64,000 nt of DNA. Source: Escherichia phage vB_EcoM_HZ_ZJUN4. Positions 46,225-61,300 of the stretch are shown in pieces. The notes beneath the pieces were generated by a model that did no database searches, had not been told where the DNA came from, and was given only the letters and a program-made list of their open reading frames with translations. Every line of letters begins with the position of its first letter. The stretch's first letter is position 1. Made by a program: the position numbers and the translations under genes. Location of the stretch: sequence record PP216085; one strand, given 5' to 3'.

Positions 46225-47427
46225 ATGAAAGTATGTATTTTTATGGCTCGAGGTCTTGAAGGTTGCGGTGTAACTAAATTTTCTCTTGAGCAGCGTGATT
46301 GGTTTATTAAAAATGGTCATGAAGTAACTTTGGTTTATGCTAAAGATAAATCATTTACTCGTAATTGCGCGCATGATTATAAATCATTTTCAATTCCGGT
46401 TTTATTGGCAAAAGAATACGATAAAACACTTAAGTTGGTAAATGATTGTGATATTCTAATTATCAATTCAGTTCCTGCTACTTCAGTTGAAGAAGACACG
46501 ATTAATAACTATAAAAAAATTATTGATAACATTAAACCTTCGGTTCGTGTTGTAGTTTATCAGCATGACCATTCTTCTCTTTCTTTACGCCGAAATTTGG
46601 GATTAGAAGAAACTGTTCGTCGAGCTGATGTTATTTTTAGCCATTCTGATAATGGCGATTTTAATAAAGTTTTAATGAAAGAATGGTATCCAGAAACTGT
46701 TTCACTGTTTGATGATATTGAAGAAGCACCGACTGTATATAACTTTCAGCCTCCTATGGATATTGCGAAGGTTCGATCAACTTACTGGAAAGATGTTTCT
46801 GAAATTAACATGAATATCAACCGTTGGATTGGTCGTACTACTACATGGAAAGGCTTTTATCAGATGTTTGATTTTCACGAAAAACATCTTAAACCTGCAG
46901 GACTAAGTACTATTATGGAAGGTCTGGAACGTTCTCCAGCGTTCATTCCTATTAAAGAAAAAGGAATTCCATACGAGTATTATCGTCTTCATCAAGTAGA
47001 CCAAATTAAAATTGCTCCTAATTTGCCAACGCAAATTCTCGACCGTTATGTAAATAGCGAAATGCTTGAACGTATGAGTAAATCCGGATTTGGTTATCAG
47101 CTGAGTAAATTAGATAAAAAATATCTACAACGTTCTTTAGAATACACTCATCTCGAGCTTGGTGCATGCGGAACAATTCCAGTATTTTGGAAATCTACTG
47201 GTGAAAATTTAAAATTCCGTGTTGATAATACTCCGTTAATTTCTCATGATAGCGGTATCGTTTGGTTTGATGAAAATGACATGAAATCAACATTTGAGCG
47301 TATTAAAGAACTGTCATCTGACCGAGCTCTTTATGACCGTGAACGTGAAAAAGCTTATGAATTTTTGTATCAGCATCAAGATTCAAGCTTCTGCTTTAAA
47401 GAGCAGTTTGACATTATTACAAAATAA
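46225..47427 (+). CDS. a-gt: DNA alpha-glucosyltransferase (400 aa)
   Basis: 400-aa ORF MKVCIFMARGLEGCGVTKFSLEQRDWF...; size and position between 55 and 47 match T4 a-gt. Confidence 0.88.
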   Translation: MKVCIFMARGLEGCGVTKFSLEQRDWFIKNGHEVTLVYAKDKSFTRNCAHDYKSFSIPVLLAKEYDKTLKLVNDCDILIINSVPATSVEEDTINNYKKIIDNIKPSVRVVVYQHDHSSLSLRRNLGLEETVRRADVIFSHSDNGDFNKVLMKEWYPETVSLFDDIEEAPTVYNFQPPMDIAKVRSTYWKDVSEINMNINRWIGRTTTWKGFYQMFDFHEKHLKPAGLSTIMEGLERSPAFIPIKEKGIPYEYYRLHQVDQIKIAPNLPTQILDRYVNSEMLERMSKSGFGYQLSKLDKKYLQRSLEYTHLELGACGTIPVFWKSTGENLKFRVDNTPLISHDSGIVWFDENDMKSTFERIKELSSDRALYDREREKAYEFLYQHQDSSFCFKEQFDIITK

Positions 47428-54158: not shown

Positions 54159-56855
54159 ATGAAAGAATTTTATATCTCTATTGAAACAGTCGGAAATAAC
54201 ATTGTTGAACGTTATATTGATGAAAATGGAAAGGAACGTACTCGTGAAGTAGAATATCTTCCGACTATGTTTAGGCATTGTAAGGAAGAGTCAAAATACA
54301 AAGACATTTATGGTAAAAATTGTGCTCCTCAAAAATTTCCATCAATGAAAGATGCCCGAGACTGGATGAAACGAATGGAAGACATCGGTCTCGAAGCTCT
54401 CGGTATGAACGATTTTAAACTCGCTTATATCAGTGATACATATGGTTCAGAAATTGTTTATGACCGAAAATTTGTTCGTGTAGCTAACTGTGACATTGAG
54501 GTTACTGGTGATAAATTTCCTGACCCAATGAAAGCAGAATATGAAATTGATGCTATCACTCATTATGATTCAATTGACGACCGTTTTTACGTCTTTGATT
54601 TGTTGAATTCAATGTACGGTTCAGTATCAAAATGGGATGCAAAGTTAGCTGCTAAGCTTGACTGTGAAGGTGGTGATGAAGTTCCTCAAGAAATTCTTGA
54701 CCGAGTAATTTATATGCCATTTGATAATGAGCGTGATATGCTCATGGAATATATTAATCTCTGGGAACAGAAACGACCTGCTATTTTTACTGGTTGGAAT
54801 ATTGAGGGATTTGACGTTCCGTATATCATGAATCGTGTTAAAATGGTTCTCGGCGAACGCAGTATGAAACGCTTCTCTCCAATCGGTCGAGTAAAATCTA
54901 AACTAATTCAAAATATGTACGGTAGCAAAGAAATTTATTCTATTGATGGCGTATCTATTCTTGATTATTTAGATTTGTACAAGAAATTCGCATTTACTAA
55001 TTTGCCATCATTCTCTTTGGAATCAGTTGCTCAGCACGAAACCAAAAAAGGTAAATTACCATACGACGGTCCTATTAATAAACTTCGTGAGACTAATCAT
55101 CAACGATACATTAGTTATAACATCATTGACGTAGAATCAGTTCAAGCAATTGATAAAATTCGCGGGTTTATTGATCTAGTTTTAAGTATGTCTTATTACG
55201 CTAAAATGCCTTTTTCTGGTGTAATGAGTCCTATTAAAACTTGGGATGCTATTATTTTTAACTCATTGAAAGGTGAACATAAGGTTATTCCTCAACAAGG
55301 TTCGCACGTTAAACAAAGTTTTCCAGGTGCATTTGTATTTGAACCTAAAGCGATTGCTCGTCGATACATTATGAGTTTTGACTTGACGTCTCTGTATCCG
55401 AGTATTATTCGTCAGGTTAACATTAGTCCTGAAACTATTCGTGGTCAGTTTAAAGTTCATCCAATTCATGAATATATCGCAGGAACAGCTCCTAAACCGA
55501 GTGATGAATATTCTTGTTCTCCGAATGGATGGATGTATGATAAGCATCAAGAAGGTATCATTCCAAAGGAAATCGCTAAAGTATTTTTCCAGCGTAAAGA
55601 TTGGAAAAAGAAAATGTTCGCCGAAGAAATGAATGCCGAAGCTATTAAAAAGATTATTATGAAAGGTGCAGGGTCTTGTTCAACTAAACCAGAAGTTGAA
55701 CGATATGTTAAGTTCAATGATGATTTCTTAAATGAATTATCGAATTACACCGAATCTGTTCTTAATAGTCTGATCGAAGAATGTGAAAAAGCAGCTACAC
55801 TTGCTAACACAAATCAGCTGAACCGTAAAATTCTTATTAACAGTCTTTATGGTGCTCTTGGTAACATTCATTTCCGCTATTATGATTTGCGAAATGCTAC
55901 TGCTATCACAATTTTTGGTCAAGTCGGTATTCAGTGGATTGCTCGTAAAATTAATGAATACCTGAATAAAGTGTGTGGAACTGATGGTGAAGATTTCATT
56001 GCAGCGGGTGACACTGATTCTGTATATGTTTGTGTAGATAAAGTAATTGAAAAAGTAGGTCTTGACCGCTTTAAAGAACAAAATGATTTAGTTGAATTCA
56101 TGAATCAGTTCGGTAAGAAAAAGATGGAACCTATGATTGATGTTGCATATCGTGAGTTATGTGATTATATGAATAACCGCGAGCATCTGATGCATATGGA
56201 CCGTGAAGCTATTTCTTGTCCTCCGCTTGGTTCAAAGGGTGTCGGTGGATTTTGGAAAGCGAAAAAACGTTATGCTCTAAACGTTTATGATATGGAAGAT
56301 AAGCGATTTGCTGAACCACATCTAAAAATCATGGGTATGGAAACTCAGCAGAGTTCAACACCAAAAGCAGTACAAGAAGCTCTCGAAGAAAGTATTCGTC
56401 GTATTCTTCAGGAAGGCGAAGAGTCTGTCCAAGAATACTACAAGAACTTTGAGAAAGAATATCGTCAACTTGACTATAAAGTTATTGCTGAAGTAAAAAC
56501 TGCGAATGATATAGCGAAATATGATGATAAAGGTTGGCCAGGATTTAAATGCCCGTTCCACATTCGCGGGGTGCTAACTTATCGTCGAGCTGTTAGTGGT
56601 TTAGGTGTAGCTCCAATTTTGGATGGAAATAAGGTAATGGTTCTTCCATTACGTGAGGGAAATCCATTTGGTGACAAGTGCATTGCTTGGCCATCAGGTA
56701 CGGAACTTCCAAAAGAAATTCGTTCTGATGTACTGTCTTGGATTGACTACTCAACTTTGTTCCAAAAATCGTTTGTTAAACCGCTTGCGGGCATGTGTGA
56801 ATCGGCAGGTATGGACTATGAGGAAAAAGCTTCGTTAGACTTCCTGTTTGGCTGA
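54159..56855 (+). CDS. 43: DNA polymerase gp43 (family B, 898 aa)
   Basis: Exonuclease motifs (DIE, YNIIDV) and polymerase motifs (DLTSLYPS, KILINSLYGALG, GDTDS); 898 aa. Confidence 0.96.
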   Translation: MKEFYISIETVGNNIVERYIDENGKERTREVEYLPTMFRHCKEESKYKDIYGKNCAPQKFPSMKDARDWMKRMEDIGLEALGMNDFKLAYISDTYGSEIVYDRKFVRVANCDIEVTGDKFPDPMKAEYEIDAITHYDSIDDRFYVFDLLNSMYGSVSKWDAKLAAKLDCEGGDEVPQEILDRVIYMPFDNERDMLMEYINLWEQKRPAIFTGWNIEGFDVPYIMNRVKMVLGERSMKRFSPIGRVKSKLIQNMYGSKEIYSIDGVSILDYLDLYKKFAFTNLPSFSLESVAQHETKKGKLPYDGPINKLRETNHQRYISYNIIDVESVQAIDKIRGFIDLVLSMSYYAKMPFSGVMSPIKTWDAIIFNSLKGEHKVIPQQGSHVKQSFPGAFVFEPKAIARRYIMSFDLTSLYPSIIRQVNISPETIRGQFKVHPIHEYIAGTAPKPSDEYSCSPNGWMYDKHQEGIIPKEIAKVFFQRKDWKKKMFAEEMNAEAIKKIIMKGAGSCSTKPEVERYVKFNDDFLNELSNYTESVLNSLIEECEKAATLANTNQLNRKILINSLYGALGNIHFRYYDLRNATAITIFGQVGIQWIARKINEYLNKVCGTDGEDFIAAGDTDSVYVCVDKVIEKVGLDRFKEQNDLVEFMNQFGKKKMEPMIDVAYRELCDYMNNREHLMHMDREAISCPPLGSKGVGGFWKAKKRYALNVYDMEDKRFAEPHLKIMGMETQQSSTPKAVQEALEESIRRILQEGEESVQEYYKNFEKEYRQLDYKVIAEVKTANDIAKYDDKGWPGFKCPFHIRGVLTYRRAVSGLGVAPILDGNKVMVLPLREGNPFGDKCIAWPSGTELPKEIRSDVLSWIDYSTLFQKSFVKPLAGMCESAGMDYEEKASLDFLFG

Positions 56856-57424: not shown

Positions 57425-57676
57425 ATGGAAACTTTAGTAGCAGGTTCAATTTTTATGGTTTTAGTTTCAGGCGTGTTGGCTATTATTATATACATGCTTC
57501 CATGGTTCATCGCCTTGATGCGCGGGTCAAAATCGACAGTAGGAATCTTTTTCACATCTTTACTGTTTAACTGGTCAATTATTGGTTGGTTTATTACATT
57601 TATTTGGTCAATTGCTGGTGAAACTAAAAAATCTGCGCAGCCAAATCAGGTAATTATCATCAGAGAGAAGGAATGA
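57425..57676 (+). CDS. imm: superinfection immunity protein Imm (83 aa)
   Basis: 83-aa two-helix membrane protein; size and position between 43 and 42. Confidence 0.85.
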   Translation: METLVAGSIFMVLVSGVLAIIIYMLPWFIALMRGSKSTVGIFFTSLLFNWSIIGWFITFIWSIAGETKKSAQPNQVIIIREKE

Positions 57677-57829
57677 AAAGCAAAATTTTAGCAGTATTGC
57701 TTTTAATATTGATGATTATAATAAGTATATACTATAGCGTAACAGTTCCTTGTATGATTCCGCCACTTATTATAGGTTGGGGTTTATTACTGTTACAAGT
57801 TAAATATGAATGTATCAATTGAGGTTTAA

Positions 57830-58570
57830 ATGATTAATGACTCTATGACAGTTGAAGAAATTCGTCTTCATTTGGGAATTGCATTAAAGGAAAAAGATTT
57901 TGTAATTGACAAAACCGGGGTTAAAACTATTGAAATTATTGGTGCATCATTTGTAGCAGATGAACCTTTTATTTTTGGCGCTCTTAATGATGAATACATT
58001 CAGCGTGAACTTGAATGGTATAAGTCTCAAAGTTTGTTTGTTAAAGATATTCCAGGTGAAACACCAAAGATTTGGCAGCAGGTAGCATCTTCTAAAGGCG
58101 AAATTAACTCGAATTATGGTTGGGCTATTTGGTCAGAAGATAACTATGCTCAGTATGATATGTGTTTAGCTGAACTTGGTCAAAATCCTGATTCTCGGCG
58201 TGGTATCATGATTTATACTCGTCCATCCATGCAGTTTGACTACAATAAAGATGGTATGTCAGATTTCATGTGTACGAATACAGTACAGTACCTGATTCGT
58301 GATAAGAAAGTCAATGCAGTAGTAAGCATGAGAAGCAATGATTGCTGGGCAGGCTATCGTAATGATTATGCTTGGCAAAAATACGTACTAGATAAATTAG
58401 TATCTGACTTGAATGCAGGCGACCCATCGCGGCAATATAAAGCAGGTTCTATTATATGGAACGTTGGAAGTCTTCATGTGTACGAAAATCAGTTTTATTT
58501 AGTTGACCATTGGTGGAACACCGGTGAGACTCATATTGCTAAAAAGGATTATACTGGAAAATGGAAGTAA
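57830..58570 (+). CDS. 42: dCMP hydroxymethylase gp42 (246 aa)
   Basis: 246-aa ORF MINDSMTVEEIRLHLG...; thymidylate-synthase-like fold; matches T4 gp42. Confidence 0.93.
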   Translation: MINDSMTVEEIRLHLGIALKEKDFVIDKTGVKTIEIIGASFVADEPFIFGALNDEYIQRELEWYKSQSLFVKDIPGETPKIWQQVASSKGEINSNYGWAIWSEDNYAQYDMCLAELGQNPDSRRGIMIYTRPSMQFDYNKDGMSDFMCTNTVQYLIRDKKVNAVVSMRSNDCWAGYRNDYAWQKYVLDKLVSDLNAGDPSRQYKAGSIIWNVGSLHVYENQFYLVDHWWNTGETHIAKKDYTGKWK

Positions 58571-59202
58571 ATGTGCCACATGTTTATAAGTATAAACATC
58601 CTAAAACTAAAAAGTGGTATATAGGAAGTCATGATGGTCACAACCCGAATTATGATGGTTCGGGTGTAGTTTGGCAACATGCTAAAAAGAAATATGGAAT
58701 AAAATCCTTTAATAAAGAAATATTATATGAAGGACCAATGTTTAGACAGGTTGAAGAAATTATTTTAACTTGTTTAGATGCTGCTAATTGTCCGGATTCA
58801 TATAATTTAAAGAATGAAGCATGGGGAGGAAGTTTTCCAGGCAAATTAAATGGAATGTACGGTAAAAAACTATCTCCAGAAGAAAGATATAAGTGCGGAA
58901 ATGCCTTTCGTGGAATCAAGCGTCCTGATCATTCTAAAAGAATGAAAGGCGAAGGTAATCCAATGTATGGTAAAAATGAGCAGGCATATGGAATTATAAA
59001 TCGAGCCAAGGAAAATTCTGGTAAAACTTATGAAGAAATTTTTGGCGTAGAAAAAGCTAAAATAATTAAAGAAACGATGTCTAAAAATCGTAAAGGAAAA
59101 CCTCATAATTTGATAGAAAAAATATGTCCGCATTGCGGACTAAAAGGACGTGGGCCAAATATGACAAGATACCATTTTGACAAATGTAAGGCACTTAAAT
59201 GA
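58561..59202 (+). mobile_element. GIY-YIG homing endonuclease (seg-like, 213 aa)
   Basis: GIY-YIG motif VYKYKHPKTKKWYIGS near N-terminus; repeated NUMOD-like modules (NGMYGKK, NPMYGKN); C-terminal Cys pair. Confidence 0.75.
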
Positions 59203-60041
59203 TTCAATTCGTAATTCCAAGTTATCAACGCGTAGGGGCAGTTTCTGCCCTTGATATGTTTCCGACTGATTATGAACCTCATATTGTAGTACGTGAACAC
59301 GAAGAAAAAGCTTATTATGACGCTTACGGGTCTAGAGCTAAAATTATAACTATTCCTGATGATGTTAATGGAATTGCTGGAACTCGTAAAGCAATTACTG
59401 ATATGTATGCAGGTCAACGAATCTGGATGATTGACGATGATACTACTATTCGTATGAGTTCAATGCGAAAGAAAGATGATCGTCGCTGCGTAGATAAAAT
59501 TAACCAGTTAACTCGTGAACAGTTCTATGAATTGATTCAATACGTTGAAGATGCCATGGATTGCGGGTATTATCATGGTCATGCTCGTTTACCTATTTTT
59601 AAAATTACTTCATCTTGGGGTAATTATCGTGAAAATTCATATGGATTCACGAATACTTGGTATGACCTCGGAAAACTTGCAACAGAACAAATTGGGTATG
59701 GAAAAATTGATTTATGCGAAGATATGTATGCATTTCTCAATTTAATTAATCAAGGTTATCCGCATTTGGCCTTGTTCAAATATCTAGTTGTATCTGGAAA
59801 AGCACAGGCTCCCGGTGGATGCAGCTCAATTCGTAGTAATTCAAAACATAATAGAGCGCTTGAGCAAATCAATAGAGAGTTTCCAGAGCAAGCTCGTTGG
59901 AAAACTTCTAATATTGAAAAACGAAAATCATTGGGTGAAGAAGACGAGCCATTAAAGGTTCTTCGCATGTGTGTTTCACGCAAAGAAAAGTCAGAAGCAT
60001 TTCATAAGTTTAATGCTATTCATCCAATAGCAGTTGATTAA
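59199..60041 (+). CDS. probable DNA glycosyltransferase at the beta-gt locus (280 aa)
   Basis: Located between 42 and uvsX where T4 has beta-gt, but at 280 aa it does not match T4 beta-gt as I recall it; possibly the T2/T6-type second glucosyltransferase. Confidence 0.5.
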   Translation: MIQFVIPSYQRVGAVSALDMFPTDYEPHIVVREHEEKAYYDAYGSRAKIITIPDDVNGIAGTRKAITDMYAGQRIWMIDDDTTIRMSSMRKKDDRRCVDKINQLTREQFYELIQYVEDAMDCGYYHGHARLPIFKITSSWGNYRENSYGFTNTWYDLGKLATEQIGYGKIDLCEDMYAFLNLINQGYPHLALFKYLVVSGKAQAPGGCSSIRSNSKHNRALEQINREFPEQARWKTSNIEKRKSLGEEDEPLKVLRMCVSRKEKSEAFHKFNAIHPIAVD

Positions 60042-60118: not shown

Positions 60119-61300
60119 ATGTCTATTGCAGATTTAAAATCCCGTTTGATTAAAGCTTCCACTTCTAAAATGACTGCTGAACTGACTACATCTAAATTCT
60201 TTAATGAAAAGGATGTAATCCGTACAAAAATCCCAATGCTTAATATCGCTATTTCAGGTGCGATTGACGGTGGTATGCAGTCTGGTTTAACCATTTTTGC
60301 AGGTCCTTCTAAACACTTTAAATCAAATATGTCTTTGACTATGGTTGCGGCGTATTTGAACAAATATCCTGACGCGGTATGTCTATTTTATGATAGCGAA
60401 TTTGGTATTACTCCAGCTTATTTGCGATCCATGGGAGTTGACCCGGAACGAGTAATTCATACACCAATCCAGTCAGTTGAACAACTGAAAATTGATATGG
60501 TGAATCAGCTTGAAGCTATTGAGCGCGGTGAAAAAGTTATTGTATTCATCGACTCAATCGGTAATATGGCTTCTAAGAAAGAAACGGAAGATGCCTTGAA
60601 TGAAAAATCTGTGGCAGATATGACTCGTGCTAAATCACTGAAGTCATTATTCCGTATTGTTACTCCTTATTTTAGCATTAAAAATATTCCATGCGTTGCG
60701 GTTAACCATACAATTGAAACAATTGAAATGTTTAGTAAAACCGTGATGACAGGTGGTACAGGCGTAATGTATTCGGCTGATACTGTATTCATTATCGGTA
60801 AGCGTCAGATTAAAGATGGTTCTGATCTTCAGGGGTATCAATTTGTTCTAAATGTAGAAAAATCTCGTACCGTTAAAGAAAAAAGTAAATTCTTTATTGA
60901 TGTTAAATTTGACGGTGGTATCGATCCTTATTCTGGATTGTTAGATATGGCTCTTGAATTAGGATTTGTGGTAAAACCTAAAAATGGCTGGTATGCTCGT
61001 GAATTTCTTGATGAAGAAACCGGCGAGATGATTCGTGAAGAAAAATCTTGGCGTGCAAAAGATACCAATTGCACTACATTCTGGGGTCCTTTATTTAAGC
61101 ATCAACCATTCCGAGATGCTATTAAACGTGCTTATCAGTTAGGTGCTATTGATAGTAATGAAATTGTTGAAGCTGAAGTTGATGAATTGATTAACTCAAA
61201 GGTTGAAAAATTTAAATCTCCAGAAAGTAAAAGTAAATCAGCAGCTGATTTAGAAACTGACCTAGAACAGTTAAGTGATATGGAAGAATTTAATGAATAA
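60119..61300 (+). CDS. uvsX: RecA-like recombinase UvsX (393 aa)
   Basis: Walker A GPSKHFKS; extensive identity to T4 UvsX as recalled (including C-terminus ...DLETDLEQLSDMEEFNE). Confidence 0.96.
   Translation: MSIADLKSRLIKASTSKMTAELTTSKFFNEKDVIRTKIPMLNIAISGAIDGGMQSGLTIFAGPSKHFKSNMSLTMVAAYLNKYPDAVCLFYDSEFGITPAYLRSMGVDPERVIHTPIQSVEQLKIDMVNQLEAIERGEKVIVFIDSIGNMASKKETEDALNEKSVADMTRAKSLKSLFRIVTPYFSIKNIPCVAVNHTIETIEMFSKTVMTGGTGVMYSADTVFIIGKRQIKDGSDLQGYQFVLNVEKSRTVKEKSKFFIDVKFDGGIDPYSGLLDMALELGFVVKPKNGWYAREFLDEETGEMIREEKSWRAKDTNCTTFWGPLFKHQPFRDAIKRAYQLGAIDSNEIVEAEVDELINSKVEKFKSPESKSKSAADLETDLEQLSDMEEFNE

Follow-up and report, generated by a model that had tools for sequence, protein, structure and literature searches.

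The stretch of DNA analysed here, 64,000 nucleotides (nt) of Escherichia phage vB_EcoM_HZ_ZJUN4 (record PP216085; hereafter the window), carries two genes between gene 42 and uvsX: a predicted homing endonuclease gene (HEG) of the free-standing Seg type, followed by a glucosyltransferase gene. We consider it probable that this is a T2/T6-type phage with the known beta-glucosyl-HMC-alpha-glucosyltransferase gene (ba-gt; HMC or hmC, hydroxymethylcytosine) and with an optional HEG that lies at the ATGA junction of gene 42 and ba-gt and homes into gene 42. On the sequence comparisons reported below, gene 42 is the likely target of the endonuclease, and the glucosyltransferase would be exchanged as a side effect at most. 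We favor this target because of where a conserved tract around the HEG begins and ends, the recoded patch of gene 42 found in 77/77 carriers, the homology of that patch with the endonuclease site of the T4 td gene, and the thymidylate-synthase-family gene that accompanies distant HEG homologues in 7/7 contexts.

Results

A conserved tract around an optional gene

The open reading frame (ORF) listing of the window contains a 213-amino-acid (aa) ORF at 58561-59202 and a 280-aa ORF at 59199-60041, both on the plus strand and both with ATG starts. Together with the Pfam matches of the flanking genes, it confirmed the first-pass annotation, which had placed both ORFs between gene 42 and uvsX. The 213-aa ORF, the HEG, shares its first 10 nt with the end of gene 42 and its last 4 nt (ATGA) with the start of the 280-aa ORF. 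Gene 42 itself (57830-58570, plus strand), which encodes the dCMP hydroxymethylase and has the thymidylate-synthase fold (Pfam PF00303 Thymidylat_synt, 1.6e-14), is uninterrupted in the window. The 3.5-kb interval shares 97-98% identity with many Tequatrovirus genomes. In T4 the interval reads 42 - beta-gt - segA - uvsX; T2 and T6 have the 280-aa gene alone between 42 and uvsX, without an endonuclease. The first-pass annotation had correctly placed beta-gt at the T4 locus; it had missed T4's own GIY-YIG gene, segA, in the same interval.

Population comparisons used phage records from GenBank and contigs from metagenomes; every record enters the summary counts, and the individual rows of large searches that we looked at are a sample. 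Insertion boundaries were read from ungapped gene 42 comparisons. The HEG was observed in 77 phage records (of ~470 with ba-gt; 16%), and it adjoins ba-gt in 77/77. It is absent from ~397 otherwise collinear records, in which alignment picks up again 2 nt ahead of the ba-gt ATG. The insert has precise boundaries (TGGAA[G TAAATG...CTTAA]ATGATTC) and re-creates the ATGA coupling with which gene 42 and ba-gt meet in T2.

When the window was compared with the carriers Manna, AugustSocin and PE37, the HEG was 99.2-100% identical, while identity fell to 95.0-95.8% over gene 42 nt 1-480 and to 93.6-95.2% over the first 420 nt of ba-gt. The conserved, apparently mobile tract (58325-59218, unstranded) runs from just before patch 1 of gene 42 (described below; gene 42 nt ~496), through the HEG, to ~20 nt past the HEG stop, and across it the window and Manna differ by a single mismatch, at 58408. 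The last mismatches on the left side (58318, 58321 and 58324) are common to all three carriers. The first on the right side fall at 59219-59228, so that the conserved tract ends ~20-30 nt into ba-gt. Because the HEG is 99.2-100% identical between genomes whose flanks are only 93.6-95.8% identical, we conclude that a selfish element has swept across diverged backgrounds, taking with it ~245 bp of the gene 42 3' end and leaving the glucosyltransferase behind. As judged from these sequences, the HEG is apparently an active mobile element.

Damaged copies of the HEG, frameshifted or remnant, were found in REP2, Shinka, Roth77 and GF. In the record of Klebsiella phage vB_KpnM_GF (MK421971; 1864-2590), all that is left of a HEG homologue is its final ~30 codons, at 80% identity, and the annotation gives a truncated gene 42 of 645 nt. 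The element may have decayed here, or the remnant may reflect a fault in a record labelled 'partial genome'.

Recoding of gene 42 accompanies the HEG

Gene 42 of the window has 88.7% nt identity with that of T2, and the differences are concentrated in the 3' third. The densest cluster is patch 1 (58331-58357, plus strand; gene 42 nt 502-528), in which 20/27 nt differ from both T2 and T4. HEG-less phages have CGCTCAAATGACGTGGTCTTCGGATTC here (RSNDVVFGF), whereas carriers have AGAAGCAATGATTGCTGGGCAGGCTAT (RSNDCWAGY). The recoding includes synonymous switches of codon family at invariant residues, with Arg changed from CGC to AGA and Ser from TCA to AGC.

For patch 1, 89 records have the recoded allele and 397 the T2-type one. 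Cross-tabulated against the HEG, 77 records have the HEG and the recoded patch, 12 have the recoded patch without the HEG, 397 have neither, and none has the HEG with a T2-type patch. For all 77 carriers the alignment starts ahead of the patch and holds at 95% identity or higher, which leaves 0/77 with the T2-type form. Among the HEG-less recombinants, pSe_SNUABM_01 and LH2 have the carrier form at patch 1 only, and PD112 has carrier-form patches 1-3 with a T2-type gene 42 end. Patch 1 is thus kept in carrier form in all three.

Two further clusters that are linked to the HEG, patches 2 and 3 (58423-58492, plus strand), encode DPSRQ versus DSTRQ at nt 594-606 and YENQF versus YSRHF at nt 651-663. 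We considered them as part of the target and found no support for this: they are separate from patch 1 in pSe_SNUABM_01 and LH2, and the HEG-bearing locus L096 has the HEG-less form of patch 3. They may be compensatory changes in the protein or merely co-converted sequence.

The same association was observed outside Tequatrovirus. Klebsiella phage Roth77 and Yersinia phage MHG19 combine the CWAG allele with HEG homologues of 65-70% identity, and Klebsiella phage GF combines it with the HEG remnant; the HEG-less Klebsiella phage Roth21 has the VVFG allele. Gene 42 of Roth21 and that of GF differ by one mismatch over nt 85-503 and diverge densely from nt 504, and the boundary therefore lies at the same position in a second genus.

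Patch 1 also corresponds to a known endonuclease site in a related gene. BLASTP aligned MRSNDVVFGFRND of gp42 with QRSVDVFLGLPFN of T4 td, and the td intron insertion site and the CAACG motif, both confirmed in the T4 record, bracket the stretch that aligns to patch 1. CAACG is the cleavage motif of I-TevI (PMC5009752).

One further gene 42 allele was seen in Escherichia phage BYEP02 (OR757454; 1719-2536), where gene 42 is a chimera, carrier-type to nt 645 and then T2-type from nt 568 onward. The resulting 77-nt duplication breaks the reading frame. The chimera is either a real recombination intermediate of the two alleles or an assembly artefact of a mixed lysate.

Genomic contexts of HEG homologues and of SegA

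In 7/7 metagenomic contexts of HEG homologues with 44-70% identity, a PF00303 gene lies directly upstream on the same strand. These contexts range from T4-like phages through PolA-encoding contigs and contigs of >300 kb. On the 3' side, distant homologues are followed by ba-gt-like and then beta-gt-like genes, or by genes for IMPDH, a helicase or dCMP deaminase, or by unknown genes. In Yersinia phage MHG19, a 65% identical homologue lies upstream of a T4-type beta-gt (56.5% identical to that of T4). By gene order, the conserved partner of the HEG family appears to be a thymidylate-synthase-fold gene, here gene 42, and not a glucosyltransferase.

SegA occupies the other side of the cassette. 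A SegA 97.7% identical to that of T4 was observed between ba-gt and uvsX in T2-type phages, with this junction in 9 records, including PD112 and LH2, and Salmonella phage Manna (PP987310) has the HEG and SegA on either side of ba-gt. Because SegA also occurs beside ba-gt, it is tied to uvsX and not to beta-gt; the SegA target is uvsX (PMC2988022, Table 1).

In several relatives uvsX is itself split or enlarged by ~1.2-1.3 kb with another homing endonuclease, of the NUMOD3 kind (pSe_SNUABM_01, L096 6703-8639, L093 6220-7757, ELT1 and RPN226). The L096 insert has a faint match to intein splicing.

The 213-aa endonuclease

The product of the HEG (58561-59202, plus strand) matches PHROG 314, 'homing endonuclease', at 2.3e-31. 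It is 32% identical to T4 SegA and 35% identical to SegC over the N-terminal 62%. An AlphaFold model built with 24 homologues has a pLDDT of 84, and its best PDB match is the catalytic domain of I-TevI (1mk0/1ln0), found with probability 1.0 at a TM-score of 0.63-0.67 on the target and an rmsd of 2.8-3.0 A. The model and the homologue alignment delimit a GIY-YIG nuclease domain at aa 7-95 (58579-58845, plus strand; VYKY...WYIGS...E67...N82), with V8-Y9-K10 in the place of GIY, Y20-I21-G22 in the place of YIG, and E67 and N82 following. Y9, Y20, G22 and N82 are invariant or nearly so across the 24 aligned homologues. A NUMOD3-like DNA-binding motif lies at aa 125-138 (58933-58974, plus strand), although its PF07460 match is under the gathering score (E 0.0027; 18 bits versus 20.4). 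The C terminus holds a zinc-finger-like CxxC...HxxxC module (C189, C192, H205 and C209; 59125-59187, plus strand) that is invariant in the 24 homologues. Several HEG homologues carry PF19835 or PF01541, and many carry the NUMOD3 family.

The PHROG match, the motifs, the fold and the Pfam matches of the homologues together lead us to assign the protein, with its modelled domain, as a Seg-type free-standing GIY-YIG endonuclease with predicted nuclease activity; the first-pass annotation had also called it Seg-like. We rejected the idea that it is a close relative of I-TevI: sequence similarity to that enzyme was not significant by BLASTP (E 1.6), and a phmmer search of PDB sequences gave no I-TevI hit. 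A search of PDB chains by sequence likewise returned nothing meaningful for this protein, and fold comparison was used instead. GenBank labels for the HEG vary between hypothetical, putative homing endonuclease and, wrongly, SegD. It is an uncharacterised addition to a well-known kind of endonuclease.

In an IMG/VR scan with the HEG as query, most matches covered nothing but the C-terminal zinc-finger module. Dozens of viral contigs, unrelated and without similarity to the remaining protein, contain this module, CPHCxxxGxGPNMTRYHFDKCK, at 59-76% identity (L033, L041-L056 and L062-L079). From this distribution, it looks like a shuffled DNA-binding cassette common to phage endonucleases.

The 280-aa glucosyltransferase

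The 280-aa protein (59199-60041, plus strand) is 98.2% identical in aa sequence to the T2 protein (AP018813) over 280/280 residues, which answers the homology search that the first-pass annotation had proposed. The T6 gene (NC_054907) has 94.7% nt identity to that of the window, and a protein at least 95% identical is present in 471 phage records. In an IMG/VR scan, ba-gt matched only 5 near-identical loci. The earlier suggestion that the protein is a glycosyltransferase is upheld by matches to PHROG 842, 'beta-glucosyl-HMC-alpha-glucosyltransferase' (6.1e-89), and to PF20691 (TAGT, TET-associated glycosyltransferase), where its 39.3 bits exceed the gathering score of 27.5 (E 8.6e-10) and the match spans positions 2-205 of the 205 in the profile. 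A search of PDB chains by sequence found nothing meaningful for this protein either, and here too fold comparison was used instead. The AlphaFold model, built with nine homologues, has a pLDDT of 74 and a pTM of 0.75. Without exception, its 16 best PDB matches (E<=1e-3) are enzymes of the GT-A/GT2 kind, for example RmlT, AvpGT, TarP, TarS and K4CP, with modest TM-scores of 0.35-0.43. A DDD motif of the DxD type (aa 79-81; 59433-59441, plus strand) is invariant in the 9 aligned homologues, down to 32% identity. Direct sequence comparison detected no similarity to T4 beta-gt, in line with the first-pass annotation.

On this sequence and fold evidence, the protein is identified as the already known ba-gt of T2 and T6, a GT-A-fold enzyme. 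The window also encodes an alpha-glucosyltransferase (46225-47427, plus strand; Pfam PF11440 AGT, 1.1e-235), the maker of the acceptor substrate of ba-gt, which is 99% identical in many Tequatrovirus records and 90.8% identical to that of T4. Because alpha-gt is co-encoded, the predicted glucosylation set of the phage (alpha-gt and ba-gt) is of the T2/T6 type. The source of the window is a T2/T6-type T-even phage (Tequatrovirus), in agreement with the first-pass annotation. The T2 and T6 ba-gt genes were reportedly cloned by Winkler and Rueger (1993). Going by the function ascribed to the T2/T6 enzyme, ba-gt would add a second, beta-1,6-linked glucose to alpha-glucosyl-hmC, yielding gentiobiosyl-hmC. 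In T2 and T6, gentiobiosyl-hmC is made by the alpha-glucosyltransferase together with the PF20691 enzyme (PMC13216743, PMC6024577).

T4-type beta-gt is the rarer state, with 29 records at 90% identity or higher compared to 471 with ba-gt. Many T-even relatives outside Tequatrovirus (CC31, Moon, Merlin, Melville, PG7 and others; also the locus L096 4636-6539) have a ba-gt-like gene (~64% identical) and a beta-gt-like gene (~49% identical) adjacent to each other between gene 42 and uvsX. As both occur side by side, the two cassettes are not strict alternatives. At 59233-59253, 35 nt into ba-gt, a GC-rich hairpin of 9 bp precedes a T-rich run; it resembles a terminator and occurs at chance frequency (2 found, 1.5 expected).

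Neighbouring genes

The gene order in the window is gp43, imm.1/imm homologues, gene 42, the 213-aa ORF, the 280-aa ORF, uvsX, gene 40 and gene 41. The gp43 DNA polymerase gene lies at 54159-56855. The right-hand conserved flank is an intact uvsX recombinase gene (60119-61300, plus strand; Pfam T4_UVSX_C, 4.7e-39, and RecA). Between imm and gene 42 there is a 49-aa hydrophobic ORF (57673-57822), which is annotated as hypothetical in AugustSocin and pSe_SNUABM_01; T4 has a ~150-nt gap without annotation at this position.

Discussion

Predicted homing into gene 42

The predicted homing event would take place in a mixed infection, in which the HEG enzyme would cut a HEG-less gene 42 at or near nt ~495-530. 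The active-site motif MRSNDVVFGFRND is encoded there, and the HEG insertion point lies ~235 bp further downstream. Recombinational repair off the HEG-bearing genome would then copy the tract from the cut through the HEG, and the carrier genome would be protected by its recoded motif, AGAAGCAATGATTGCTGGGCAGGCTAT, acting as an immunity allele. The glucosyltransferase would be a neighbour and not cargo, replaced only if the recipient had no homology there, as with a T4-type beta-gt. The identities of the two proteins, the tract boundaries, the presence/absence polymorphism, the association of alleles and the link to thymidylate-synthase-family genes are observations; that the enzyme is an active nuclease, where exactly it cuts and which way transfer went are inferences.

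Several points weigh against homing into gene 42. Patch 1 lies only 235 bp from the HEG, and tight linkage and shared ancestry inflate the two-by-two association. The records are non-independent, and the 12 HEG-less records with the recoded patch represent ~3-4 independent breakpoints. The change from VVF to CWA alters the hydroxymethylase protein and could represent functional variation carried along by hitch-hiking, and the thymidylate-synthase-family genes linked to distant HEG homologues differ at the motif (LVFG, QILG and AVFG). For the enzyme itself, a counterpart of Arg27 of I-TevI was not confidently placed, and in the Pfam search the 213-aa protein reached no GIY-YIG model (PF01541, PF19835). 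A literature search found no description of this endonuclease. A sigma-70 promoter and terminator scan, together with a search for the T4 late promoter TATAAATA, found nothing above chance at the locus and hence no promoter belonging to the HEG.

Alternative explanations

A different mobile behaviour would have the enzyme cut at or near its own insertion point, the gene 42/ba-gt ATGA junction, as intron-encoded enzymes do, with the patches co-converted or hitch-hiking. HEG-bearing alleles also differ from HEG-less ones over the final ~50 nt of gene 42, and insertion of the HEG breaks the junction TGGAAATGATTC, which by itself would be enough for immunity. However, the HEG-less recombinants pSe_SNUABM_01, LH2 and PD112 combine a T2-type junction with a recoded patch 1, and the reciprocal class is seen in 0/77 carriers. 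Tract boundaries at patch 1 in two genera also speak against cutting at the junction, which would leave the synonymous recoding of Arg and Ser unexplained. In addition, the known Seg enzymes cut away from their own genes, SegA in uvsX, SegF in gene 56 and SegG in gene 32 (PMC2988022). We consider cutting at the junction unlikely. Even less probable, in our view, is a functional partnership in which the HEG drives exchange of the modification cassette (ba-gt versus beta-gt); that the endonuclease may drive such exchange was the suggestion of the first-pass annotation. The cassette does lie between two actual or apparent endonuclease targets, gene 42 (this analysis) and uvsX (for SegA; PMC2988022), and all four HEG/SegA combinations were found around ba-gt (the window, T2, PD112/LH2 and Manna). 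Repair of a cut in a beta-gt phage would need to bridge the non-homologous cassette, so that replacement of the cassette in such a cross is mechanically possible. Tequatrovirus copies of the HEG are beside ba-gt in 77/77 and beside beta-gt in 0, yet this is near chance level given how rare T4-type beta-gt is (29 versus 471 records). The MHG19 homologue can be counted on both sides: it places a member of the family upstream of a T4-type beta-gt, and it is also a member that is not paired with ba-gt. The swept tract, however, stops shortly after the start of ba-gt, and the adjoining ba-gt is as diverged as the remaining genome. Distant homologues precede IMPDH, helicase or dCMP deaminase genes without a glucosyltransferase, and the family is tied to a thymidylate-synthase-family gene in 7/7 contexts. 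The claim that the endonuclease drives exchange of the modification gene accordingly found no support.

It is also conceivable that the 213-aa gene encodes a relic or domesticated DNA-binding or nuclease protein that is immobile, its distribution being due to vertical descent in one Tequatrovirus subclade. The presence of the HEG in only 16% of ba-gt phages, the frameshifted or remnant copies in REP2, Shinka, Roth77 and GF, and the lack of a detected promoter of its own would fit such a history. We regard it as highly improbable, since simple vertical descent cannot account for near-identity of the HEG across backgrounds with 4-6% flank divergence. Both the catalytic motifs and the zinc finger have been kept intact and conserved, and in unrelated phage types homologues are placed relative to thymidylate-synthase-family genes just as here.

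Relation to known systems

The ba-gt of the window shares with those of T2 and T6 its position between gene 42 and uvsX, the ATGA coupling of its start and an alpha-gt alongside; its start is coupled to the endonuclease ORF instead of gene 42, and otherwise nothing of substance differs. The HEG resembles the T4 Seg genes in its N-terminal GIY-YIG domain, its length (~210-220 aa), its placement between conserved genes in their orientation and its optional presence among close relatives. Like SegA, SegF and SegG, it would cut an adjacent conserved gene ~200-300 bp off and be copied with flanking sequence; SegF and SegG cut a neighbouring gene at a distance and cause localized marker exclusion. 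In contrast to T4 SegA, the HEG belongs to a distinct lineage absent from T4, lies on the opposite side of the glucosyltransferase cassette, has gene 42 as its predicted target, and carries a C-terminal CxxC...HxxxC finger that is not in the aligned region of SegA.

With I-TevI (T4 td intron) and I-BmoI (Bacillus mojavensis thyA intron), the HEG shares the GIY-YIG nuclease fold. Its predicted target encodes the R-S-x-D...G motif of a thymidylate-synthase-fold enzyme and is homologous to the interval between the cleavage and insertion sites of I-TevI (PMC5009752). Unlike these two, the HEG is not intron-encoded, overlapping instead the gene 42 stop and the ba-gt start; its predicted target is in the paralogous dCMP hydroxymethylase gene; and it lies ~235 bp downstream of the predicted site and not inside it. 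A broader idea, which we hold tentatively and with somewhat less than even confidence, is that the HEG represents a Seg-type lineage specialised on thymidylate-synthase-fold genes across phage groups, cutting the same motif codons as I-TevI and I-BmoI by convergence or by hopping between paralogues, with SegA on the far side bracketing the hmC-glucosyltransferase cassette as a hot spot.

Implications

The glucosyltransferase part of these results is textbook: the phage is predicted to make hmC DNA of the T2/T6 type, with alpha-glucosyl and gentiobiosyl groups. Glucosylation of this type affects sensitivity to GmrSD, to Brig1-type glycosylases and to other modification-dependent defences. The HEG adds to the T-even catalogue an apparently active mobile element with a specific predicted target, gene 42 nt ~495-530 of T2, T4 and T6. 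If the proposed homing is correct, the idea of convergence among homing endonucleases on codons for the active site of the thymidylate-synthase fold would also cover a paralogous enzyme, and a sharply bounded polymorphism in an essential gene of nucleotide metabolism would be explained. The two alleles of patch 1 would also provide a natural pair of sensitive and immune sites for studies of GIY-YIG specificity. On the broader idea of a specialised lineage, the glucosyltransferase cassette would be a recombination hot spot, with the type of glucosylation swappable between co-infecting T-even phages. The proposed homing into gene 42 would be relevant to phage-therapy cocktails, in which mixed Tequatrovirus infections would be expected to convert the locus.

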